DNA of 64,000 nt from Promethearchaeota archaeon (GCA_011364975.1 RDOE01000002.1:9793-73792); one strand, 5' to 3'; positions 20,534 to 33,880 are shown, numbered from the stretch's first letter. The notes: generated by a model not told the origin, from the letters alone. Numbers and translations: made by a program.

Positions 20534-20649
20534 CTTTTTAGCTATATTAATTCACCCATATTAATTATATGATTAAAAATAAGGTAACCTAGTTAAAAAA
20601 TTAATCCTATTAAAAAATGATGGTGAAGAATGTTAATTGATTGAAAATT

Positions 20650-21870
20650 TTAAAATGAAGTTAAATTTGATTGAGGAAATTGAGATTCTTCCCCTGCAGC
20701 TTGAACATAGGGGGAGATTGGTCCTCGTCCTAGAGCCATAATTCGAATTTTTGATCCTAACATCGGATTTAGAGCAGTCCCAAATTTTAGGGTTGCATCT
20801 TCAGGGATTTCATTTGAAATCGCAGATACAATCTTATCGATCTTTGATAAAGAAAGTTGATGATCTCCTGTAACAGAAATAATGCATCGATCTACGTTAT
20901 CGGTATTTAATTCTAAAAGGGGATTATGGAGAGCCAGTCTAGCCTTTCTGATTAAATCCTTCTCTTCTCCCAAGGATTCCGTAATCCCTATCAATCCTGA
21001 GGGATATTCTCCCTTTTTTTCAAGAACTTTTCTAACATCAGCATAATCGATATTGATTAAACCACAGTTATTGATAAGATTGATAATTTCATTGATACTT
21101 CTAATGAGAACTTCATCCATTATTTTAAAACCAGTTAAAATTGGCATCTTTTGATTAAATCGAAGTAAATTATCATTGGGTATTGGTATTAAAGTATCGG
21201 TATAGTTTAAAAGATCTTTTAAGCCTCTCTGGGCTCTTAAAATTCGCTCTTTACCCTCAGAAGTGAACGGGATTGAGCAGAAGCTTACTACTGTTGCATC
21301 GTTTTTCTTAGCTTCTCTTGCTACTATTGGAGCGGCCCCTGTTCCCGTACCTCCACCTAAACCAAATGTTAAAAATACAACATCAGCATTCAGAACTTGA
21401 GCTAATCTTTCCACATCCTCTTCTGCTGCATTTTTACCCACATCAGGATCATTTCCAGACCCTAATCCGCTGCAAGTTTCCTTTCCAATTAATACTTTCT
21501 GTTTTGCGTTTGAGTAATATAAATCATGAGCATCTGTATTAATATTGAGAGTTTCAATGAATTTAGAACCTAAATCTTGCATTCTTGAGATGGTATTATT
21601 ACCCGCCCCTCCAATACCTACCACTAGGGACTTAATCTTTAAGACTTTAAGTAAGTCAGCTAAGTATTTATCACTATCCAAATTTGTAGATCCTTTATCA
21701 TTTAAATTTTGACGGGCAATTTCTTGAAATCTTGACCTCACAGACATTCTTGATTTGGCTATTTCGGTTAAATTAAGCTCATCCTCAGTCATAATTTTAT
21801 CCATAAAGTAGAAGTAATTCTTATATAATACGAGTATTATATCCAAATAATATAGGATAGTAATATGCAT
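20650..21870 (-). CDS. ftsZ: cell division GTPase FtsZ
   Basis: GIGGAGNN, NTD, GLGGGTGTG signature, IPND, T7 loop INIDYADV. True start is probably near 21804. Confidence 0.93.
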   Translation of the reverse strand: MHITILYYLDIILVLYKNYFYFMDKIMTEDELNLTEIAKSRMSVRSRFQEIARQNLNDKGSTNLDSDKYLADLLKVLKIKSLVVGIGGAGNNTISRMQDLGSKFIETLNINTDAHDLYYSNAKQKVLIGKETCSGLGSGNDPDVGKNAAEEDVERLAQVLNADVVFLTFGLGGGTGTGAAPIVAREAKKNDATVVSFCSIPFTSEGKERILRAQRGLKDLLNYTDTLIPIPNDNLLRFNQKMPILTGFKIMDEVLIRSINEIINLINNCGLINIDYADVRKVLEKKGEYPSGLIGITESLGEEKDLIRKARLALHNPLLELNTDNVDRCIISVTGDHQLSLSKIDKIVSAISNEIPEDATLKFGTALNPMLGSKIRIMALGRGPISPYVQAAGEESQFPQSNLTSF

Positions 21871-22144
21871 GTAATATCGCTCTTAAAATTAAATGCAACT
21901 AGTGCTATGGAGATAACATATTTTTTCAAATATTATAAGGAAAATATCTCATTAGTATTATAATAACATATATGTCAATTTGAGAGCTATTAGCAATAGT
22001 AGATAAATCCCATTTAGGTTATTAGATACTTCGAACCCCATGATATTTAGCTCTAATTATTCGTGGGAAAAAAATGATTGGTTCTAAAGTGAATAAATTT
22101 ATAAGATTATATTTTCACTTGTATTATGTTAGGGGTTTAAAGAA

Positions 22145-22384
22145 ATGGAAATTGATTTGAATAGGAACTCTACAGGTAAAACGTTGGAAGAATCTGAACA
22201 GGCTGATTTAATAAAAGTTAGAGCCTTAATTTCTTGCCCTAATGGAGATTATAGTAAGAAATTTCGTAATCAGTTTCCGAGGAATCAACTAGAATTGTTT
22301 ATAGTAGCAGCAAAAGTGTTTGATTTCATGACTTGCCCTAAGTGTGGAGAGATTCTAAAGTTAGATTTAGAATTTAATATATAA
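22145..22384 (+). CDS. small zinc-ribbon-like protein
   Basis: CPNG and CPKCGE, GGGG RBS. Confidence 0.7.
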   Translation: MEIDLNRNSTGKTLEESEQADLIKVRALISCPNGDYSKKFRNQFPRNQLELFIVAAKVFDFMTCPKCGEILKLDLEFNI

Positions 22385-23844: not shown

Positions 23845-24867
23845 TTACAGAGATTCGCCCAATTTTTTATTACATGAAACTAATAACACTTTAATCTCAT
23901 CATCATTGGGATCCAATGATAATACTTGTTTATAATAAACAATTGCTTGAGTATAATCCTTCTTTATAGTTAAATAGATATTCCCAAGCTTTTTTAAATT
24001 AGATATATTTTCAGGTTCAAGTCGAAGAGCTTCTTTATAATAAAATATTGCGTTGTCAAAATCTTCTATATTACAATAACTGAAAGCAATATTTTCAAAT
24101 AATATTGTATCTTGTGAACTTAAAGTGAGTGCTTTTTCATAACACTCAATTGATTTTTGATAATTATTTAGTAAGGTATAAGAAAGACCTAAATTATTCC
24201 ATGCCTCAATGAAGTAAGGATTGATATCAGTTGCTTTGGAATAAGATTTTACTGCTAAATCATAATCATTTTTCTCATAAGCAACATCACCCAAATCAAA
24301 CCATATATCCTCATTGTCCGGATCTAATTCTAAGGCTTTATTATAGAATTTTATAGCATTTTCAAAATCTTCAATATCAAAATAGATATTTGCTAAATTA
24401 TTATAGAGAATAGGCTCATCAGGGTTAATTCTAATAGATTTTTCATAACATTCAATTGCTTTATCAAAATCTTCCATATCACGGTAAAGTAATGCAATAT
24501 TGTTCCACACATCGGTATAACTTGGTTCATATTCCAAAGCGATCTTATAATATTTTAAAGCATTATCCAGATCTCCAAGATCTTCATAAGCGAACCCAAG
24601 ATTATAGTAAGTTACTGCATCTTCGGGATCAAGCTCTAAAGCTTTTTCATAGCACAGAATAGCGTTCTTATAATCCCTTATCATCCCGTATGATAATCCT
24701 AGGTTGTTCCATACCTCTGAAAAGTAAGGGTTAATTTCTATAGCTCTTTTATAAGATTCGATTGCCTCCTCATAACTATTCGTATCATAATAGGCATCTC
24801 CTAAATTGATCCAAGCATCGGCGTCATTAGGATCAAGTTCCACTGATTTTTTATATCTTTCAATCAT
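23845..24867 (-). CDS. tetratricopeptide repeat protein (about 9 TPRs)
   Basis: Repeated 34-aa W/Y.NLG..Y...A...Y.KALE..P units. Confidence 0.93.
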   Translation of the reverse strand: MIERYKKSVELDPNDADAWINLGDAYYDTNSYEEAIESYKRAIEINPYFSEVWNNLGLSYGMIRDYKNAILCYEKALELDPEDAVTYYNLGFAYEDLGDLDNALKYYKIALEYEPSYTDVWNNIALLYRDMEDFDKAIECYEKSIRINPDEPILYNNLANIYFDIEDFENAIKFYNKALELDPDNEDIWFDLGDVAYEKNDYDLAVKSYSKATDINPYFIEAWNNLGLSYTLLNNYQKSIECYEKALTLSSQDTILFENIAFSYCNIEDFDNAIFYYKEALRLEPENISNLKKLGNIYLTIKKDYTQAIVYYKQVLSLDPNDDEIKVLLVSCNKKLGESL

Positions 24868-24944
24868 AATTTAAGGTTAGAACTATTGAAGATTAAAATG
24901 ATATCTCTCTATTATTTTTTTATATTTTTGAAAATCATGAAAAC

Positions 24945-25985
24945 TTAAACCATTAGGAGCATTTTATCAATCTTTTGATCAGTTAAGAGTATTCTATAAT
25001 ATGGTTCATTATTTTTATAAATAACCTCCTCTAATTTACCTAATACGAAAACTTTCTCCCCTTTAACTGCCTGTTCACAATATCTTCCTCGGTATGAAGT
25101 AATCTTAGTTATTTTATTCATATCGAGATGAGATATTTTTAGATGTTGTTCAATAATCTGGAAACATTTTATTGAATAGGAGCAGGGTGTAAAAATTGAT
25201 TCAGAAGAATCGATTATTTCACCTTTTACTGCGATGGTACCTAGATTCTTGAATTGATAATCATAATATGTTCCTTCCCAATCTTCAGGACTTTTAATAT
25301 AACGAATAAAGAAATCAATATTAAGATATTTTCCTTGATGTTGTTTTCTTTGTTCACTTCTTAAGAAATCTTGAAATGAAACATCAGAGCCCCCAAATCT
25401 CCAATTGTAGTGAGATTTAAACTCATCAAGTTTATATTTTCTGCAGGAATTTGGTTTTTCATATATTTCTTTTAATTTATTTTGAAATTCTAAAGAATTT
25501 TGAGTACCATAAATGATGATATCTATATCCGAATCTAAGTTACTTAATCCGATCATAGAAGATCCGGATATCCCAATAGAATTCTCTGAAAGAGAAGAGT
25601 TTTGTATAAATAGATCGCATAAATCAAAAGACATTAACTCTAATTTTGAAAGGTTTTCTTTATGATGTAAAAATTTGAAATAGTTTTTTGGAGTATAAAT
25701 TTTTTTAATATCTTCACATTTAACTCCTTGAAGTGGAATGTCAAGTTCTTTAGAATAGAATAAATATTGGGGAAATTTCTCTTTTAGTATCAAAAATCTA
25801 TCATCAAAAGCATAGACTTTTTTGAATTTAATACCATTTTTTACACGATCTCCATTTTGATCTGGAAAAAATCGTAAAAAACAAATTTTTCGATCTTTTG
25901 GGTGATGAATACCTTTTATATCAAAAAAAAGATTATCTTTTTTCGTTTCAAGGTAATCTCCTTCAATTCCTTTTGGAACTTCCAT
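24945..25985 (-). CDS. archaeal Pol-beta-fold nucleotidyltransferase (COG1665-like)
   Basis: KGIHHP, GISGS...SDIDIIIYG, C-terminal OB-like GEKVFVLGKLE. Confidence 0.8.
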   Translation of the reverse strand: MEVPKGIEGDYLETKKDNLFFDIKGIHHPKDRKICFLRFFPDQNGDRVKNGIKFKKVYAFDDRFLILKEKFPQYLFYSKELDIPLQGVKCEDIKKIYTPKNYFKFLHHKENLSKLELMSFDLCDLFIQNSSLSENSIGISGSSMIGLSNLDSDIDIIIYGTQNSLEFQNKLKEIYEKPNSCRKYKLDEFKSHYNWRFGGSDVSFQDFLRSEQRKQHQGKYLNIDFFIRYIKSPEDWEGTYYDYQFKNLGTIAVKGEIIDSSESIFTPCSYSIKCFQIIEQHLKISHLDMNKITKITSYRGRYCEQAVKGEKVFVLGKLEEVIYKNNEPYYRILLTDQKIDKMLLMV

Positions 25986-26006: not shown

Positions 26007-27110
26007 TTAATAATTTGAAGGAGTCTTTGTTTTAATTTTATATTTTGGGATTTCTCTTACTTTTCTTAATTCTCTTTCAAAATCCTTCTTTTCTTGTAAA
26101 AATCTCTCTTTGTCTCGATCTAATTTCTCTCTTTCTCGTTTAATTATATTTTTTTCACTTTCAATTCGAGATTTTTCATTTTCTAATCGCTTAAATTGAT
26201 TATTTAATTCTTTTAATTTATTTTCTGAATTACGAATTTTATGTTCTAATGAAAAGTAAGTATCTTCAGCTTTAGGAACCTTGTAATTTAATTCCTTTAA
26301 TTTTGCTTCTTGTTCTTTTCTCTTTCTTTCGAGGTTCTTTAATTCATCTTCTAGCTTGTCTTTAAATTTCTCTAATTCCGTTTTTTTCTTTTCTACTTCT
26401 CGGTTTTTAAGGTTTAAGTCTTTCTTTTTATATTTTACTCCTCGCTTTTCTTCTTGTAATTTTCTTTTCTCATCTTCAATTCGATTTCTTTCATCAATAA
26501 TTTCTCTTTTCAAATCATTAATCTCTTTGTCTAAATTGTCTCTTTCTCTAGTTAGACTTTTTATTTCATTTCTTAACCGCATTAAATCGTTTTCTAGCTT
26601 TTCAATAGTTCGTTCTAATGCTTCCTCTCGTCTCTCCATTCCAGGTATTTTAGTTTTAATTTCCTTTATACGGTTTTGTGCTCCTTCTTTTTCTCTTTCT
26701 AATAGTCTTTTTTCCTCGGTTAAGTTTTCTTTTAATCGCTCTAATTGTTCTTGATATGCTCTTAAGTCTGACTTTTTTTGATTTAACTCTCTTTCTTTTT
26801 GATCAATCTTATTTCTACTCTCATATATTACATTTTTCATCGCATCCATTTCTTGCTTTAACTTCTCGCGCTGATCGAGTAGATCTCTGACTTCAAGTTC
26901 TTTTTCTTTTCTTTTATGTTCTAAATTTTTAATGTTTACTTGATAGTCTTCAAATTTCTTTATAACTCTTTCCCATTCGGTTTTTTCTCTGTTTAATTTA
27001 ATTCTTTCTTCCTTAATTTTTTTCAATAATTTCGAATCTGGAATGCTTTCTATACTTTCTTCCGGTGTTTTCTCTCGAATTTGAAACTTTGGAATATTAT
27101 TATCAGTCAT
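26007..27110 (-). CDS. long coiled-coil protein
   Basis: About 320 aa of E/K/R-rich heptads with no globular or ATPase motif. Confidence 0.85.
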   Translation of the reverse strand: MTDNNIPKFQIREKTPEESIESIPDSKLLKKIKEERIKLNREKTEWERVIKKFEDYQVNIKNLEHKRKEKELEVRDLLDQREKLKQEMDAMKNVIYESRNKIDQKERELNQKKSDLRAYQEQLERLKENLTEEKRLLEREKEGAQNRIKEIKTKIPGMERREEALERTIEKLENDLMRLRNEIKSLTRERDNLDKEINDLKREIIDERNRIEDEKRKLQEEKRGVKYKKKDLNLKNREVEKKKTELEKFKDKLEDELKNLERKRKEQEAKLKELNYKVPKAEDTYFSLEHKIRNSENKLKELNNQFKRLENEKSRIESEKNIIKREREKLDRDKERFLQEKKDFERELRKVREIPKYKIKTKTPSNY

Positions 27111-27285
27111 ACTAACTTAATAACTCAATTTTTCGTTTAATTAAACTATATTAATACAGGCTCTAAAGTGTTTGCACTTTCAATTTTAGATAAATTTCTA
27201 CTTGTTAATTATTTATATATCTTAATTTCCATAACTTACTAGAAGTATAATAAAAAGATCATTCAAAAATTATGGTGTTTCTATA

Positions 27286-27708
27286 ATGGAATTTGATGAG
27301 GAGTTTGATGAAGAGTTTGATGAAGAGTTTGATGAGGAGTTTGATGAGGATTTAGATGAAGATCTAGATGAGCAATCATCAGAACCTCCTGGAAAAATTC
27401 CAGATGATGATGTTAAAACCAAAACCCCTGAACCTAAAGTAATTCAGGAAGGGAAAAAGATTTCAGTCTACTTCATGTCAACTATAGGTCCAGGTGAAAA
27501 AAAGCAAAAACTGTTAATTAACACGGGAAATAAGGTTGGTGATGTAAAAGAAACCGCTGCAAATTTGTTTGGTTTAGATCCTGCTGACTTTCATTTATCC
27601 TCGAGTGGGGTTACGATGGATGAAAATTCAAGCTTAAACGATTATAATATAGCTGATGGAGATGATATTCTTTTGATTCCGGCAAGCACCGCGGGATTAA
27701 AATGTTAA
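27286..27708 (+). CDS. ubiquitin-like (UFM1-like) modifier 1 with an acidic N-terminal extension
   Basis: Beta-grasp signature G..MD....L.DYNI.DGD.ILLIP. Ends PASTAG-LKC. Confidence 0.85.
   Translation: MEFDEEFDEEFDEEFDEEFDEDLDEDLDEQSSEPPGKIPDDDVKTKTPEPKVIQEGKKISVYFMSTIGPGEKKQKLLINTGNKVGDVKETAANLFGLDPADFHLSSSGVTMDENSSLNDYNIADGDDILLIPASTAGLKC
27289..27372 (+). repeat. 7 x 12-bp tandem repeat encoding (E/D)(F/L)DE
   Basis: GARTTTGATGAR x5 followed by GATYTAGATGAR x2. Confidence 0.9.
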
Positions 27709-27725
27709 TTAAATTTATAAAATAA

Positions 27726-28547
27726 TTAGCTTTTTCCATTAATTTTTTTTCTGGTAGGAATTAGAGCTAATTCATCATCATCTTCAATATTGTAGTCAAT
27801 AATTTTTAAATCATCATCTAACAAGATTCCTCCAGAGGAAATTAGAAAACCATCTGGATTATAATCAAATAAAACACCTATTTTCTGTTTGATTATATTT
27901 ATCAATTCCGATGTATCAATTATCATTATTTTCGTTTTCTCACCAGGTTCAATTAATGATCGAACATAAACACGTATTTTCTCATCAATTTCAACAATTC
28001 TTTTTGGTGGGGTATAATTTATAGGATCGTCTGTGACACTTCTGTTTTTTATCATAGTTTCAATTAGTTGAATTCTCTCATCAGGATCGAAGTATAATAA
28101 TTCTCTAATGAAAAAAATTTTATCCATTTTTGAAAGTCCCAATAGGTTTATTTTCTCTAAATCTTCTTTTTTAAATACAGAAAAGATATAGTCATTAATT
28201 TTTGGAATATCTTCAAATGATTCATTTGAATCAGCATAACTATCAATTAAAGGATTTGCCTCAAAGTAGTCTTCAATAAATTGATTAGCTAGATTTTTTA
28301 ATGATTTCTTTTGAGGTTGATATTTTTGTTGAGGTAGCGCTTTTTTCTTTCCTAAAAACTTATATGAGCTCTCTTTTGACTGAATAATGGTATAAGCAGT
28401 ACTAGTAGATAATACAGCTACACTACTAATAGTTAAAAAGAGATATAAAGGAATACTCTCTACCCTCGAAAGGAACAATATTATATAAATACAAGTTACA
28501 ACAATGTAGAGAGTTATTAAACCAAATGCTCTATTTTTATTTCTCAT
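27726..28547 (-). CDS. membrane-anchored protein with a C-terminal UFM1-like domain (no terminal Gly motif)
   Basis: Two N-terminal hydrophobic helices. The C-terminal domain VYVRSLIEPGEK...SSGG..LD.....DYNIEDDDELALIP is a paralog of both modifiers. Confidence 0.82.
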   Translation of the reverse strand: MRNKNRAFGLITLYIVVTCIYIILFLSRVESIPLYLFLTISSVAVLSTSTAYTIIQSKESSYKFLGKKKALPQQKYQPQKKSLKNLANQFIEDYFEANPLIDSYADSNESFEDIPKINDYIFSVFKKEDLEKINLLGLSKMDKIFFIRELLYFDPDERIQLIETMIKNRSVTDDPINYTPPKRIVEIDEKIRVYVRSLIEPGEKTKIMIIDTSELINIIKQKIGVLFDYNPDGFLISSGGILLDDDLKIIDYNIEDDDELALIPTRKKINGKS

Positions 28548-28628
28548 AATTTTTATACTATTATTCTAAATTTCTAATGTATTATTCAAAATTTAAATTC
28601 CATTGGTATAAATCTGAAATTTTATAAC

Positions 28629-29300
28629 CTACTCACCCACAATAGAGTTCATTATTTTTGTATATTTCTCAGTATCTAATCTAAATAATATTCTTTTATT
28701 ATCTTTTTCAACCTTTATAATCCTTAATTTATGAAGAATTTTAAGATACTTTTTAATTGTATTGTAATTCTTCTTTAAATTCTTCGCTAATTGGGTAGCT
28801 TTTAAGCTATTTTCTTCTTTTAACATAAATTCGATTATTTCTTGGATAATTACTTGTTTTAAATAATAAGATAACTCGTCGTATTCGGGATTTGACTCAT
28901 AGTGAAAGATTATTCTTTGATTATCAATTTTTTTTGATCTAGTAAATCCAAATTTTTCTAAGCAAGATAAATGCCATAATACTTGATTGCTACCAATATT
29001 TATCGCTTTCATAATTTCATTGATATTGGCAGGTTGTTTCTTGATATAATTATAAATTTCATTTCTGATTGGATGTTCGATAATATTATTTTTCATTAAT
29101 TTAGTTCCTGGTATTAGGATTCTTTTTTTAATTAGTTTTTTTATAATTTTTTCAATACTATTTTTATTCAAATTTGGGTTAAATTTCACCCTATTATTTA
29201 TATAAACAACAATATCCTCAATTGAAAAAAATGGCTTCTTTTTTAAATACTCCTTTATTAGATCACAAACAATAGCTTGAAGGGTATCAGAAGAGCTCAT
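28629..29300 (-). CDS. tandem winged-HTH transcriptional regulator (ArsR-like)
   Basis: RNEIYNYI...NQVLWHLSCLEKFG and TQLAKNLKKNYNTIKKYLKIL. Confidence 0.8.
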   Translation of the reverse strand: MSSSDTLQAIVCDLIKEYLKKKPFFSIEDIVVYINNRVKFNPNLNKNSIEKIIKKLIKKRILIPGTKLMKNNIIEHPIRNEIYNYIKKQPANINEIMKAINIGSNQVLWHLSCLEKFGFTRSKKIDNQRIIFHYESNPEYDELSYYLKQVIIQEIIEFMLKEENSLKATQLAKNLKKNYNTIKKYLKILHKLRIIKVEKDNKRILFRLDTEKYTKIMNSIVGE

Positions 29301-29565
29301 AAACTTTAATTTTTTTTTGTTAAAATACCTTGATTTTTAAACTAAATCTTCTTTCTAAACAGTATTTCCAATAATTATATATTAATAAGCCTACACTCAA
29401 TTTATAAATATATTTTCCTAAGAATGCTTTTGAAACTTTAGTACTTATTTGAGAAATTTTTAATATTTCAAATTCATTCCAAATGGTTTTTTAATATCAG
29501 ATTTGCGTGTTATTATTAAAAAATAAAATAAAATTAATATTTAAAAATATAAGAATGTGATTTGA

Positions 29566-29898
29566 ATGAGTTTTGACAACGATTTTGATGAAGAATTAGA
29601 GCCTGTTAAATCTAAAACTCCATCAAGTAAAACACCCACAACAGGTAAAAAGTTGACTTTATACTTTATGTCAACTATTGGTCCTGGTGAAAAGAAAGAG
29701 AAATTAACAGTGAATGACGCTAACCGTGTAAGTGATATCAAACAAACATTAGGAAATTTATTTGGACTCGATCCTGATGAATTTCACCTTTCATCTGGTG
29801 GAGTAACTATGGATGAAAGTAATCAACTAAAAGATTATAATGTTAATGATGGCGATGATATCCTTCTGATCCCAGCGAGTACTGCGGGATACTTTTAA
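29566..29898 (+). CDS. ubiquitin-like (UFM1-like) modifier 2
   Basis: Close paralog of 27286..27708. Ends PASTAG-YF and lies directly upstream of the E1. Confidence 0.87.
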   Translation: MSFDNDFDEELEPVKSKTPSSKTPTTGKKLTLYFMSTIGPGEKKEKLTVNDANRVSDIKQTLGNLFGLDPDEFHLSSGGVTMDESNQLKDYNVNDGDDILLIPASTAGYF

Positions 29899-29924
29899 AT
29901 AATTCTTTTCATAAAATCTAATAT

Positions 29925-29959
29925 AAGGGCATTAAGCCCTTTAATTTTTTTATTTTTTT
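29925..29959 (+). terminator. hairpin plus U-tract between modifier 2 and the E1
   Basis: AAGGGC-ATTAA-GCCCTT followed by TAATTTTTTTATTTTTTT. Confidence 0.55.
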
Positions 29960-29973
29960 GATTAACATTTAAG

Positions 29974-31206
29974 GTGATAATATTGGATAAGGATTCAGAT
30001 TTTTTTGCAAAAGGAATGTCAGCGGAAGAGAGAGATCTGTATGATCGCCAATTTCGTTTAGAAGGATGGTCTCAGAAATTGGTAAAAAACTCGAGAGTCT
30101 TAATAGCAGGTGTTGGTGGATTAGGTTGTGAAATTGCAAAAAATCTAGCGATGTTAGGAGTAGGTCATTTAGATCTTGTTGATTTAGACATTATTGAGCA
30201 TTCTAATTTAAATCGTCAAATTTTATTTACAGGCGCTAAGTTAGGGGCACCAAAAGCAATTGTCGCGGCTCAAAAATTAACCGAGATTAATCCAAATATT
30301 GTTGTGAAAGGATATCATTCTTCTTTAGAACGGTTAGACCCTGCTTTATACTATGCTGCTGATGTTATTATTGGAGGCCTTGATTCAATGAATGCCCGCT
30401 TGAATTTAAATGCTCAGTGTATACGCTTTAGAAAGCCGTTTGTAGATGGTGGAGTATCTGGTTATCATGGGCATATGTATTCGATCTTTCCTTATCAAAA
30501 TGCTTGTTATGAATGTAATCCACTTCCAGTATCGGAAAGTGATGAAATGGCGGCCTGTACTGTAGTAGGGGTTCCTCGAAAACGTATTCATTGTCTTTTT
30601 AAAGGAGATATGGCCTTTAAAGAAAAATTTGATAGAGATCCAAATCCAAAAAATATAACAGATATTGAATTTATTCAAAAAGTTGCAAATGAATTAGTAA
30701 ATAAACATAATTTCTTACCAGAATATACAATAGATGATATTGTTAAAATCATTAATCGCCACGATCCTGGGATCATCACGATTAATGCGGTAATATCTGC
30801 TTTAGAATCTCATGAGGCTGTTAAAATATTGCATTGGAAAAAAGGTCATAAGGGTTTAGGACACCCTATTGCGAGTTATGTAATATTTAATGCAATGACA
30901 ATGAAACTTTATCACATAGAAAAGAAGAGAAATCCAGAATGTTCTCAATGTGGTAAAAATACAAGGCGTGTGGTCATAAAGATGAGAGCTCAATCACCAT
31001 GTTTGAATATAATTCGAACATTAAAAAAGAATGGGTTTGAATTAGAGCCTGAATTTGAACCAGTTCTAACCCTGCAAGATTATAATGATATCTTGGTTTT
31101 AGATTTAGAGCAGAGTTTGATTGAGAATGGTTTGAGGAATTACGAATTTTTAACTGTTGCAGGGTTTAAGGGTGGAGAAATTTATGTTACCTTAAAATTA
31201 ATTTAA
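29974..31206 (+). CDS. ubiquitin-activating enzyme E1 (UBA3/UBA2-like)
   Basis: YDRQ, GVGGLG, D.D.IE.SNLNRQ, CYEC, catalytic ACTVVGVPRKRIHC, CSQC and a C-terminal UFD-like domain. Probable start is the TTG at 29983 after GGTGA. Confidence 0.93.
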   Translation: MIILDKDSDFFAKGMSAEERDLYDRQFRLEGWSQKLVKNSRVLIAGVGGLGCEIAKNLAMLGVGHLDLVDLDIIEHSNLNRQILFTGAKLGAPKAIVAAQKLTEINPNIVVKGYHSSLERLDPALYYAADVIIGGLDSMNARLNLNAQCIRFRKPFVDGGVSGYHGHMYSIFPYQNACYECNPLPVSESDEMAACTVVGVPRKRIHCLFKGDMAFKEKFDRDPNPKNITDIEFIQKVANELVNKHNFLPEYTIDDIVKIINRHDPGIITINAVISALESHEAVKILHWKKGHKGLGHPIASYVIFNAMTMKLYHIEKKRNPECSQCGKNTRRVVIKMRAQSPCLNIIRTLKKNGFELEPEFEPVLTLQDYNDILVLDLEQSLIENGLRNYEFLTVAGFKGGEIYVTLKLI

Positions 31207-31298
31207 AGTTTAATTTAAAAATGATTGGTATCTAAAATTTATCAATAAAAGAAAAGTATGATAAAAAAATTATAATTATAATAAAAAAGGTTAAGAAA

Positions 31299-31826
31299 AT
31301 GAGTATAAGAAGTAGTCGGATTTCTCAAGATTTTGCAGGATTAAAAAAGTTACTCAAGGATGGTACTATTATTCAATTAAAACCTTTTAATCCAAAAAAG
31401 AAAAGCATTGATCATTTAGCAATTACGCTCAAAGGACCTAAAAATACAGCATATGCAGGAGGCTTGTTTAAATTGGAGATGAGTTTCCCTGCTCAATATC
31501 CTAAGCAACCACCATTTGTAAGAATGCACACTCCGATATGGCATCCAAATTTTTGGCCAAAACCAAATGAATATAAGGGACAGAGAAATATTTGTTTAGC
31601 ATTAGTGGATCCTTCTTTAGCAGGTAAAAAAGGAGGATGGAGTCCTTCAAAAACTGCTGTCACCATTGTTCAAGCCATAATTGCTATGTTAAATACCAGT
31701 GGTAAATATGTAAATCCTACTGATGTGTTTAATAAGAAAGCTGCAATGGAAATGATGAAAGATCCAAAGTTTTTCGATAAAAAGGTTAAAAATTTAGTAA
31801 AGAAGTATGCAAAGGATAAATGGTGA
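31299..31826 (+). CDS. ubiquitin-conjugating enzyme E2 (UBC)
   Basis: GP..T.Y.GG.F, YPKQPP, HPN, catalytic ICL, WSP. Confidence 0.94.
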   Translation: MSIRSSRISQDFAGLKKLLKDGTIIQLKPFNPKKKSIDHLAITLKGPKNTAYAGGLFKLEMSFPAQYPKQPPFVRMHTPIWHPNFWPKPNEYKGQRNICLALVDPSLAGKKGGWSPSKTAVTIVQAIIAMLNTSGKYVNPTDVFNKKAAMEMMKDPKFFDKKVKNLVKKYAKDKW

Positions 31827-31832
31827 ATCTAA

Positions 31833-32654
31833 ATGAATGAAGATGATAAGATTAGTATCTCGATTAAGGAAGCAGTTAAGCAAAAAATTAAAGAGAAAAT
31901 TAAAAAAGAATTACTTGAAGAGATATATAATGAACTAAAGTTAGAAGAAGAATTAGAGGAAGAAATAACATTTGAGTTAATAGATACCAAACCGTTAGAA
32001 CACTCAGAAAGTATTAAGGAAAAACTCGAACCCATTCCTATGGTGCCAGTAAAAACTACCGCTAATAGTGATAAAATTAAAGCACAAATTGTGATAACTG
32101 TTAAAGCTGTTCTAAAGATCGCAAGTCATTCTTTAAAGTACGCTCACTCTAAAATTCCACGAGAAGATTGGGTTGAAGTGATCGGCTTGTTGGCAGGAAA
32201 ATACGATAACGCAAAGGGAGTGTTATATGTTGAAGATGCTTATCCTATGGGTCATGGCACAGCTGTCTACGCAGAGATTAATGTTGAAAGGAATCGAAAG
32301 TCTGGTCATGAACGAGCGTATGAAGAAATTATCAAAAAGGGGTTATTCATTTGTGGATGGTATCATTCTCATCCTTCCTATGGTTGTTTTATGTCTAGAG
32401 AAGATTTAGGAACTCAAGCACGGTATCAAAAGTTATGGGATAAAGCTATAGCTTTAGTTATAGATCCATATCAAATTAATGGATTATCATTAGGATTTGA
32501 AATATATCGTGCAAATTTTAAAACTAAAAAATGGTTTTCGGTACCTTTTGACATCAAGGGGTACTTAGACGTAAAAATGTTACCTGAGATATTAGACTTT
32601 ATGAATCCAATAATTGAGGGAAGAGCAGCCTATTTAGAATATGATGAAGAATAA
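31833..32654 (+). CDS. JAMM/MPN+ metallo-isopeptidase (CSN5/Rpn11-like)
   Basis: EVIGLLAG and GWYHSHPSYGCFMSREDLGTQ...ALVIDP. Confidence 0.94.
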   Translation: MNEDDKISISIKEAVKQKIKEKIKKELLEEIYNELKLEEELEEEITFELIDTKPLEHSESIKEKLEPIPMVPVKTTANSDKIKAQIVITVKAVLKIASHSLKYAHSKIPREDWVEVIGLLAGKYDNAKGVLYVEDAYPMGHGTAVYAEINVERNRKSGHERAYEEIIKKGLFICGWYHSHPSYGCFMSREDLGTQARYQKLWDKAIALVIDPYQINGLSLGFEIYRANFKTKKWFSVPFDIKGYLDVKMLPEILDFMNPIIEGRAAYLEYDEE

Positions 32655-32683
32655 TTTTTGAGTTGAAAGGGGTTAATTAAATC

Positions 32684-33880
32684 ATGGTAAAAAAGAAGGG
32701 AATAGCAATAATATTTATTCTATTTCTCCTAATAGGACTTATCCATGGTTTAATTTCAATTTCACTAAATATTTCTTTAACCTGGATATTAATTGGATTG
32801 TGGATAATAGTTTCCTTAAAAATTATAGAAAATATAAGAAGACATCGCGAGTTTAATTCTCCTCATAATACTGCCTTTTTTGTTGTAATCCCTTTATTCA
32901 TGGGGATTTTTTATTCCATTTGGGGGTATTTTACGGGTATTTTTGGAGAAAATCTTATCGAAGGTTCGAATCTTTATTTTAGTGGTTGGAGTCTTATTTT
33001 TGGATTTCCTTATGTAACATATGGTTCCTACTCATTATATCGTTGCTTTAAGAAATATAATGTTATTTATTTTGGGGCAAAATCTATAAAAGCTAAGACT
33101 TTTGGATTTATTTTAGCTTTTGTGGTACTTAGCTTTATTATAACTTATTGGATAATATTTTATTCAATATTTGATTATTTTGAGACAATATTAATACCAC
33201 TTCATTTGTCGTTAAATCTTAATCTTTTAATATTATTTATTAGTTCTATTTTAATATTAACTATATTTGGATTTTTTGCTTCACAGAGAACCCTACCTGC
33301 ATTAACTAATGATTATATAGAACAACGAACGAGAAAAATAAATTCTTTAGCGAATGCTTCACCGTCATCTTTGCCCAGAACTCAGAGACGACAAGTAACA
33401 AATAGACACTCAATCCAAACGCCCTCCAGTAAAACTGAAACTATTGCTTCAAGAACTCGAACTAATTCATCAAGAACTACTCCAACCTCTCAAAGAAAGA
33501 CTCAAAGGACCAAGATAACTTATAAAACGAATTCAACAAGAAAAACCTCTGGAACATCACAAAATCGAGGAAAAAAAATGCGAAATTTAGATATATACAA
33601 ACCTATAGCAGCATTACTTTCACCAGAAGATTTTAAATGTATTTTCTGCTTTAAATTACCAAAACTCCCCGAAGATAGAAGTAGAGGTATCATTTTATGC
33701 CCAAATTGTAAATATCCTGCACATGCAGATGAGTTCAAAGATTGGGTAAGAACTTCGAATCTCTGTTCAAGATGCAGTACACCAATTTCCTCTAGCTTCA
33801 GAAACAATCCTAAAATTATTAGCGTAAAAAATTATATGGTAATTTATAAATACTTTTTAAACAAGAAAAATAAAAAATAG
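32684..33880 (+). CDS. multi-pass membrane protein with a C-terminal RING-variant finger (putative E3 ligase)
   Basis: About 6 TM helices, an S/T/R-rich linker, then CIFC-x16-CPNC-x4-H-x2-E-x3-W-x6-CSRC. Confidence 0.78.
   Translation: MVKKKGIAIIFILFLLIGLIHGLISISLNISLTWILIGLWIIVSLKIIENIRRHREFNSPHNTAFFVVIPLFMGIFYSIWGYFTGIFGENLIEGSNLYFSGWSLIFGFPYVTYGSYSLYRCFKKYNVIYFGAKSIKAKTFGFILAFVVLSFIITYWIIFYSIFDYFETILIPLHLSLNLNLLILFISSILILTIFGFFASQRTLPALTNDYIEQRTRKINSLANASPSSLPRTQRRQVTNRHSIQTPSSKTETIASRTRTNSSRTTPTSQRKTQRTKITYKTNSTRKTSGTSQNRGKKMRNLDIYKPIAALLSPEDFKCIFCFKLPKLPEDRSRGIILCPNCKYPAHADEFKDWVRTSNLCSRCSTPISSSFRNNPKIISVKNYMVIYKYFLNKKNKK

Follow-up and report, generated by a model that had tools for sequence, protein, structure and literature searches.

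A putative Asgard ubiquitin-type conjugation locus with Ala-Gly-ended modifiers and a membrane protein bearing a RING-like zinc finger

A 64,000-nt stretch of a Promethearchaeota archaeon genome (GCA_011364975.1, RDOE01000002.1:9793-73792; the window, in which all positions are counted) was analysed with respect to a locus at 26007-33880 encoding a putative ubiquitin-type conjugation system. Nine open reading frames (ORFs) fill this interval. Five of them lie on the same strand (+), in the order Ubl2, a ubiquitin-like (Ubl) modifier of 110 aa (29566-29898); a canonical activating enzyme (E1) of 410 aa (29974-31206); a UBC-type conjugating enzyme (E2) of 175 aa (31299-31826); an Rpn11-like JAMM/MPN+ metalloprotease of 273 aa (31833-32654); and a membrane protein of 398 aa with a C-terminal RING-like zinc finger (32684-33880). 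Separated by gaps of 75, 92, 6 and 29 bp, these genes form a tight same-strand operon, and all five functions of the archaeal Ub-E1-E2-RING-Rpn11 operon of the Caldiarchaeum/Asgard type are encoded together here. A regulator gene is divergent from Ubl2, the gene for a membrane-anchored Ubl protein comes next on the regulator's strand, and the second modifier gene, Ubl1, forms a further divergent pair with a coiled-coil gene. The system is small, and introns and large complexes are absent. An operon of this composition with four flanking genes had been proposed by the initial annotation, which was made from the DNA alone, and all nine ORFs, the Pfam families ubiquitin, ThiF, UQ_con, JAB and HTH_5 and the catalytic motifs were confirmed. 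We consider it probable that the locus is a self-contained Asgard conjugation system of the ubiquitin type, a paralogue of the GG-ubiquitin system of the same genomes, with Ala-Gly modifiers and a RING-like ligase in the membrane.

The two modifiers were first compared with known families. Ubl2 scored 29.1 bits with the Pfam ubiquitin model (PF00240), above its cut-off of 25.4 bits, and Ubl1 (27286-27708, +, 140 aa) came just below it with 24.0 bits (E 3.3e-05). Each has an acidic N-terminal tail, containing KSKTP in Ubl2 and KTKTP in Ubl1. Ubl2 matched ubiquitin in the PDB: the 60 best of its 283 matches were all ubiquitin-type, and so were the 60 best of 444 matches to a profile of the family (ubiquitin, ISG15, FAT10, ubiquilin), with UFM1 among neither set. 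With this profile, E was about 1e-07 for mono-ubiquitin and about 1e-09 for Asgard structures labelled 'putative ubiquitin'. Meanwhile, the nearest ESM Atlas clusters were annotated as ubiquitin or Rad60-SLD. In the HMMER alignments, residue q of Ubl2 pairs with ubiquitin residue q-32 through residue 102, and six more residues lead to Gly108. By this alignment the tail of Ubl2 has the length of ubiquitin's, A107-G108 occupy the positions of G75-G76, and Gly75 is replaced by Ala. The sequence comparisons place both modifiers in the ubiquitin family and not with UFM1.

UFM1 is a modifier whose single terminal Gly is exposed once a short extension has been removed. The initial annotation had called the present modifiers UFM1-like, and they might be regarded as UFM1 relatives working with canonical enzymes, in an ancestral form of UFMylation. 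A single terminal Gly followed by a short cleavable extension would fit this view. Moreover, structure-based Ufm1 homologues have been reported in nine Asgard clades (PMC12962969, 2026). However, the Pfam Ufm1 model (PF03671) gave no match at E <= 0.1 in any of the three Ubl domains of the locus, and a genome-wide search with it found nothing above the cut-off of 27, the best match (E 0.54, 12.3 bits) containing a stop. The ubiquitin-type PDB matches, the ubiquitin or Rad60-SLD neighbours in the Atlas and an E1 whose match to UBA5 is 22 orders of magnitude weaker than that to UBA2 all argue against it as well. The missing second Gly is the sole likeness to UFM1, the tail being of ubiquitin length. 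The label UFM1-like is not supported, and the UFMylation reading, already disfavoured, is highly improbable.

Neither modifier has a GG end: Ubl2 finishes with ...STAG-YF and Ubl1 with ...STAG-LKC. In Ubl2 the last Lys or Arg precedes the terminal Gly by 19 residues, so that trypsin would leave a long branch on a modified lysine. For the comparison across species, a scan with one genome per species yielded 137 loci encoding the membrane protein, 80 of which were kept. The Ala-Gly end was present in 69/69 Ubl2 and 53/53 Ubl1 copies, always with the terminal Gly. The gene stops directly after AG in 48 of the 69 Ubl2 copies, and 42 of the 53 Ubl1 homologues end exactly at [TIV]AG; variable extensions were found in the remainder of both. 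When 5.8 billion proteins were searched, 857 homologues of Ubl2 were obtained, and all 120 that were listed showed ...AG plus 0-4 variable residues, 33 of them ending at the G. Because the sequence is conserved up to this Gly and variable or absent after it, species comparison identifies the terminal Gly as the mature end of both modifiers, in agreement with the single terminal Gly noted at the outset.

Related modifier genes were seen elsewhere in other arrangements. Beside the operon of one genome, which belongs to another class, lies a gene for a 580-aa protein (L093:14572-16314, -) whose C-terminal Ubl domain ends in ...SSRAG; this protein is possibly a modifier joined to a large N-terminal region. 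Some genomes have a tandem pair of Ubl genes directly upstream of the E1 gene (L091:12929-14082; L059). A sulphur-carrier role (ThiS/MoaD-type) for the Ubl proteins was also considered and was dropped in view of the E2, the RING-like protein and the Rpn11-like protease encoded with them.

The three enzymes of the operon are of canonical types, as had been supposed. The E1 (ThiF, 193 bits) has intact motifs, namely GxGxxG at 46-51, CxxC at 178-181 and 323-326, and AACT at 193-196. Its best PDB matches were UBA2 (1.2e-36), Uba1 (1.2e-35) and UBA3 (4e-33, over query residues 34-334); UBA5 reached only 5e-15, and ATG7 was also far weaker. A Cys in its insert aligns with the PGCT Cys of UBA2, the catalytic residue of that enzyme. 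With an adenylation domain, a catalytic-Cys insert and the CxxC pairs, the protein is, by its predicted features, an E1 of the canonical UBA1/UBA2/UBA3 type. The E2 (UQ_con, 89 bits) matched ordinary UBC enzymes in the PDB, and its HPN at 82-84 and Cys99 were invariant in 22/22 aligned species. The JAMM protease (JAB, 52.3 bits) retains a complete metal site (E115 and HxHx7Sx2D at 178-191), and its best PDB match was the Rpn11-like protein of Caldiarchaeum (7.5e-16), followed by Rpn11 and CSN5. Five more JAB-domain ORFs of 332-541 aa lie on other contigs of the same genome (three on C136, one each on C171 and C191).

The last gene of the operon encodes a protein of three parts: a transmembrane (TM) domain, a disordered Ser/Thr/Arg-rich linker and a strongly conserved C-terminal domain. 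Hydropathy and the AlphaFold2 (AF2) model both gave about six TM helices, modelled with a predicted local distance difference test score (pLDDT) of 70-90. Positive charge on the N-terminus and on the inner loops, together with six helices, would put the C-terminal finger in the cytoplasm. Pfam and NCBIfam returned nothing significant for this protein, and no Pfam family or name was attached to the 120 listed of its 370 homologues. Likewise, the TM domain in the full-length model matched no known fold in a wide VIA search (best Z 8.4, root-mean-square deviation (rmsd) 11.7, to unrelated helical proteins). Within this domain (32684-33300), two cytoplasmic loops are near-invariant, HREFNSPHNTAFF between TM2 and TM3 and SLYRCFKKYNVIYFG after TM4, and they too are without a family or fold match.

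The RING-like domain spans residues 316-368 (33629-33787, +). Across 30 sequences, C319, C322, C339, C342, H347, C361 and C364 are invariant, together with E350 and W354. The spacing CPxC-x4-H-x2-[C/E]-x3-W-x6-CxxC recurs exactly in four RING domains encoded elsewhere in the same genome that match zf-RING_2, three of which pass or reach the cut-off of that Pfam model. When the finger was compared with these four by hhalign, a probability of 94.3% was obtained (E 1e-07, 63 columns). In the full-length AF2 model, finger and linker had pLDDT values below 50; the finger was then folded alone and reached pLDDT 71 with a beta-beta-alpha core. A VIA search of this model against 48,161 chains gave RING or U-box ligase entries in 42 of the best 50 rows. 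From the alignments we conclude that the finger is homologous to RING domains and that Glu occupies its sixth ligand position, and from this homology and the position in the operon we infer ligase activity of the membrane protein.

Several results weigh against a ligase. The finger has just seven Cys/His ligands, position 6 being Glu350 (Ala in 1/8 distant homologues, L094). No Pfam RING model reached its cut-off on the 30 finger domains, where only sub-threshold zinc-finger and RING matches were found, and the ubiquitin-binding zinc finger zf_UBZ gave a similarly weak score in 28/30 of them. The fold matches are weak as well, the best VIA Z being 5.2 (rmsd 3.9, 66 aligned). By Foldseek, the finger had no PDB match with E <= 0.001, and it came closest to the zinc finger at the C-terminus of an IFT-A chain (E 0.02, TMq 0.52, 72 columns); HRD1 RING entries appeared there just among many weak RING matches. 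The best PDB profile match was IFT144, at a non-significant E of 0.09 (8 matches at E <= 10). The C-terminal zinc fingers of IFT-A proteins are not known to be ligases. As a side observation, a CPxC-[FY]PA...CxxC pattern is common to the finger and the IFT-A C-terminal zinc fingers (IFT144/WDR19), and GATOR2 chains also appear among the matches. Prediction of the complex between the E2 and the finger domain gave 0.00, 0.52 and 0.00 in three runs, which speaks neither for nor against binding.

These results could also be read in another way, with the membrane protein as a receptor, scaffold or substrate and not an E3. Its finger would then bind the modifier or mediate assembly in the manner of IFT-A and GATOR2, and E1 plus E2 would suffice for conjugation. 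The IFT-A chain as best Foldseek match, the IFT144 profile match with the CPxC-[FY]PA motif in common, the zf_UBZ scores and a sixth ligand that is neither Cys nor His all agree with such a role. It is opposed by the hhalign match to true RING domains, whose spacing is the same down to the Trp four positions past ligand 6, and by the E3 RING or U-box domains that fill 42 of the best 50 VIA rows. Furthermore, the last-gene position in an E1-E2-JAMM operon corresponds to that of the small RING protein of Caldiarchaeum (PMC5654768). On balance we regard a non-E3 role as unlikely, and a membrane ligase is retained as the preferred reading.

The genes flanking the operon were examined in the same way. 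The membrane-anchored protein (27726-28547, -, 273 aa) contains a C-terminal Ubl domain at residues 195-262 that exceeds the PF00240 cut-off with 26.8 bits and has no terminal Gly. By hydropathy, residues 5-47 form a hydrophobic segment, an N-terminal anchor, in this 2-TM protein. With this anchor and the helices of the zinc-finger protein, the two integral membrane components that the initial annotation expected are both accounted for. In 53/56 homologues no Gly occurs in the last nine residues; since the terminal Gly is missing in these copies, the Ubl domain is predicted to be non-conjugatable. The regulator (28629-29300, -, 223 aa) has two ArsR-type winged helix-turn-helix (HTH) domains (HTH_5, 43.6 bits, two stretches; NCBIfam ArsR/SmtB, two stretches), and it is kept in place across the species loci. 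Between the regulator and Ubl2 lies a divergent intergenic region of 265 bp (29301-29565), the presumed promoter region. The coiled-coil protein (26007-27110, -, 367 aa) gave sub-threshold coiled-coil/SMC-like matches only, and its gene adjoins the system in 49/56 loci.

A short motif, [KR][ST]KTP, ties the coiled-coil gene to the system at the sequence level. In a six-frame scan of the 3.74-Mb genome that covered every ORF beginning with Met and reaching at least 60 aa, the motif occurred in just three: at residue 44 of Ubl1, residue 15 of Ubl2 and residue 360 of the coiled-coil protein, where it reads KTKTP and lies at the C-terminus. Across species it was found inside the last 25 aa of 48/51 coiled-coil homologues and in the N-terminal tail of 58/67 Ubl2 homologues, in its strict form in just 5/53 Ubl1 homologues, and in no other conserved protein of the locus. 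Distant classes show the motif too. This distribution suggests, as an idea, a shared docking or acceptor site.

The synteny check proposed at the outset was then carried out, and the linkage proved to be conserved. In 61/63 loci with at least 3.3 kb upstream, the gene for the membrane protein is directly preceded by Ubl2-E1-E2-JAMM, the two misses being L046 (JAMM not detected) and L064 (Ubl2 not detected). All nine genes are present in 49/56 loci with at least 7.2 kb upstream. Such an arrangement is far beyond chance. Compared with the window proteins, E2 has a median identity of 87%, Ubl2 of 83% and E1 of 82%, which indicates strong constraint on these sequences; for the membrane proteins and the coiled-coil protein the value is 54-57%. 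It counts against a purely functional explanation that the housekeeping neighbours, a GTP cyclohydrolase and a nucleotidyltransferase, are syntenic too. Part of the conserved order may thus be plain collinearity among relatives, and order alone therefore overstates the functional linkage of the outer genes.

Beyond close relatives, the membrane protein was matched in 200/400 genomes of the phylum, including 117/134 of the family to which the window belongs and several families of other classes. Eight more distant loci were inspected. Six of them have the order Ubl-E1-E2-JAMM-membrane finger with a Ubl end of ...[AVH]STAG: 4/4 of the loci that had strong matches or belong to the same class as the window (L093-L095; L088 in another class) and two loci of other classes (L089, L091). 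A closed genome (G138) likewise has the operon. The remaining two comprise one broken by a contig end and one with only a soluble finger protein. A few record titles are odd. L060, a full archaeal operon, comes from a record titled Nanopelagicaceae bacterium, and several loci are titled Thor-, Odin-, Hod- or Hermodarchaeota, yet their proteins are 52-66% identical to those of the window. Mis-binning or loose labels are the likely cause.

The same genome also encodes a GG-type ubiquitin of 84 aa ending in ...GG-K (contig C191:52408-52662, or L097:8408-8662, -; PF00240 E 1.7e-10). This protein occurs in 136/161 genomes of the class, mostly with more than 90% identity. In addition, contig C132 (L096) carries a second canonical E1 of 524 aa (20581-22155), whose adenylation domain is 47% identical to that of the first, and a second UBC E2 of 172 aa (24448-24966), 35% identical. 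The two genes lie about 2.3 kb apart with unrelated genes between them, not in an operon. By sequence, two modifier types, each with a candidate E1/E2 pair, co-exist in this genome. The initial annotation had proposed a second Ubl pathway that tags membrane proteins; the GG-ubiquitin with a second E1 and a second E2 elsewhere makes a second, parallel pathway plausible, and membrane proteins as its substrates are taken up below as part of the proposed mechanism. Pfam matches to Snf7 and ESCRT-II (Vps25) were found on contigs C157 and C180 only and not on contig C128, which contains the window; the locus is without ESCRT linkage, as had been expected.

A simpler possibility is that the locus is the already known Asgard or Loki ubiquitin operon. 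The Ala-Gly end would then be neutral, the enzymes would be general cytosolic ones that also use GG-ubiquitin, and there would be no separate membrane pathway. All the enzymes are indeed of canonical type. Operons of the Ub-E1-E2-RING-Rpn11 type have been published for Caldiarchaeum and Asgard archaea and partly reconstituted (PMC5654768, PMC6043591), and in Lokiarchaeota the ubiquitin and ESCRT genes are stated to lie in two separate regions (Hatano et al., PMC9192718). However, a second E1 and a second E2 exist besides GG-ubiquitin, and one pair per modifier type is the simpler reading. The ...STAG end is kept across classes while the GG-type co-exists, which argues for selection and not drift. 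Furthermore, the finger protein always comes with a membrane domain, save in the 1/8 distant loci that has only a soluble finger protein. We therefore do not favour this explanation and assign it a small chance; a distinct, paralogous system with a membrane ligase is preferred.

For this preferred system the following mechanism can be proposed. The extension of 2-3 residues on Ubl2 and Ubl1 would be removed here by the Rpn11-like JAMM protease, most relatives' genes already stopping at Gly. The operon E1 would adenylate the terminal Gly, load the modifier onto its own catalytic Cys and hand it to Cys99 of the operon E2. The cytoplasmic RING-like finger of the membrane protein would recruit the E2 and steer transfer to lysines of proteins at the membrane, and the JAMM protease would also undo the modification. 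Regulation of the operon probably falls to the divergent two-HTH protein, and the membrane-anchored, non-conjugatable Ubl protein probably serves as an adaptor at the same site of the membrane. The coiled-coil protein, with the [KR][ST]KTP motif in common with the modifier tails, is a candidate substrate or docking partner. The analysis shows the gene content, catalytic motifs, homologies, conserved AG end and synteny, and from these we infer all of the biochemical steps, the pairing of E1 and modifier and the membrane substrates.

A more specific role can be imagined, though we would call it doubtful. The locus could be a dedicated module that tags proteins for membrane quality control or signalling beside GG-ubiquitin, made up of a polytopic ligase of the RING type, a Ubl-domain adaptor anchored in the membrane and the Ala-Gly-ended ubiquitins, with an architecture prefiguring Hrd1/Herp of endoplasmic-reticulum-associated degradation (ERAD). 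Conjugation would be site-directed, with [KR][ST]KTP as the consensus acceptor or docking site and the coiled-coil protein as the dedicated substrate. SUMO-2/3 form chains through their N-terminal tails, and the occurrence of the motif in the modifiers' own N-terminal tails would allow chains in the same manner.

Asgard ubiquitin systems are used to reconstruct the origin of eukaryotic protein tagging. If the preferred reading is true, at least two ubiquitin-type cascades, with a separate E1 and E2 for each, already operated side by side in the archaeal relatives of eukaryotes, and one of them was tethered to the membrane by its ligase and by an adaptor with a Ubl domain. Both the branching into several modifier pathways and the link between ubiquitylation and membranes would then predate eukaryogenesis. 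Specificity swaps and reconstitution in vitro should be directly feasible, given that the system is small and strongly conserved and has neither introns nor large complexes. Meanwhile, the exclusive KTP motif provides a concrete handle on substrates.

The closest eukaryotic comparisons concern the UFM1 pathway and ERAD. The locus resembles the UFM1 pathway (UFM1, UBA5, UFC1, UFL1, UfSP) in the single terminal Gly with a short extension, but its modifier is of the ubiquitin family by sequence, and its enzymes are UBA2/UBA3-like, UBC and JAMM, not UBA5, UFC1 and a Cys protease. The ERAD ligase Hrd1 is a multi-pass protein with a cytoplasmic C-terminal RING, and its partner Herp/Usa1 is a membrane protein with a Ubl domain. 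Here, similarly, a polytopic protein with a putatively cytoplasmic C-terminal RING-type finger is accompanied by a separate membrane-anchored Ubl protein that is apparently non-conjugatable. The TM domain has no detectable homology to that of Hrd1, and Hrd1 was not among the best 50 VIA rows, whose best Z of 8.4 belongs to unrelated helical proteins. The ERAD-like reading is a resemblance of architecture only, an analogy.

Among archaeal systems, that of Helarchaeia shares a ubiquitin-family modifier, a canonical E1, a UBC E2 and, if the finger is a ligase, a RING-type E3 with the present locus. For that system, a cascade of GG pro-ubiquitin (GG-SPKN) with a soluble RING E3 that modifies UEV-Vps23 was reconstituted (bioRxiv 10.1101/2023.07.25.550441). 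That system is GG-terminated and lies beside ESCRT genes, whereas the ESCRT genes here are on other contigs and the RING-like finger is membrane-bound. As to novelty, Asgard operons of the Ub-E1-E2-RING-JAMM type are already in print, so that less is new here than the initial annotation supposed. Full-text searches of the literature found no Asgard ubiquitin with an Ala-Gly end, and neither a RING with transmembrane helices nor a membrane protein with a Ubl domain was found described for the operon, a statement limited to running text and exclusive of figures and supplements (among them the synteny figure of PMC9192718 and the Ufm1 set of PMC12962969).

The operon of Caldiarchaeum subterraneum is the nearest known counterpart. 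The same five functions are combined there in one operon and were reconstituted in vitro (PMC5654768, PMC6043591). The JAMM protease of the locus has the Caldiarchaeum Rpn11-like protein as its best PDB match (7.5e-16), and in both systems the modifier may carry a C-terminal extension that is removed by the JAMM protease. The two systems differ in several respects. The modifier here ends in Ala-Gly instead of Gly-Gly and has a conserved acidic N-terminal tail with KSKTP. In place of a small RING protein there is a 6-TM domain joined to a RING-like finger whose ligand position 6 is Glu. The locus also has further conserved partners, namely the second modifier, the membrane Ubl-domain protein, the regulator and the coiled-coil protein. 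The locus is thus apparently a widespread, undescribed variant of the known Asgard/archaeal Ub-E1-E2-RING-Rpn11 operon.

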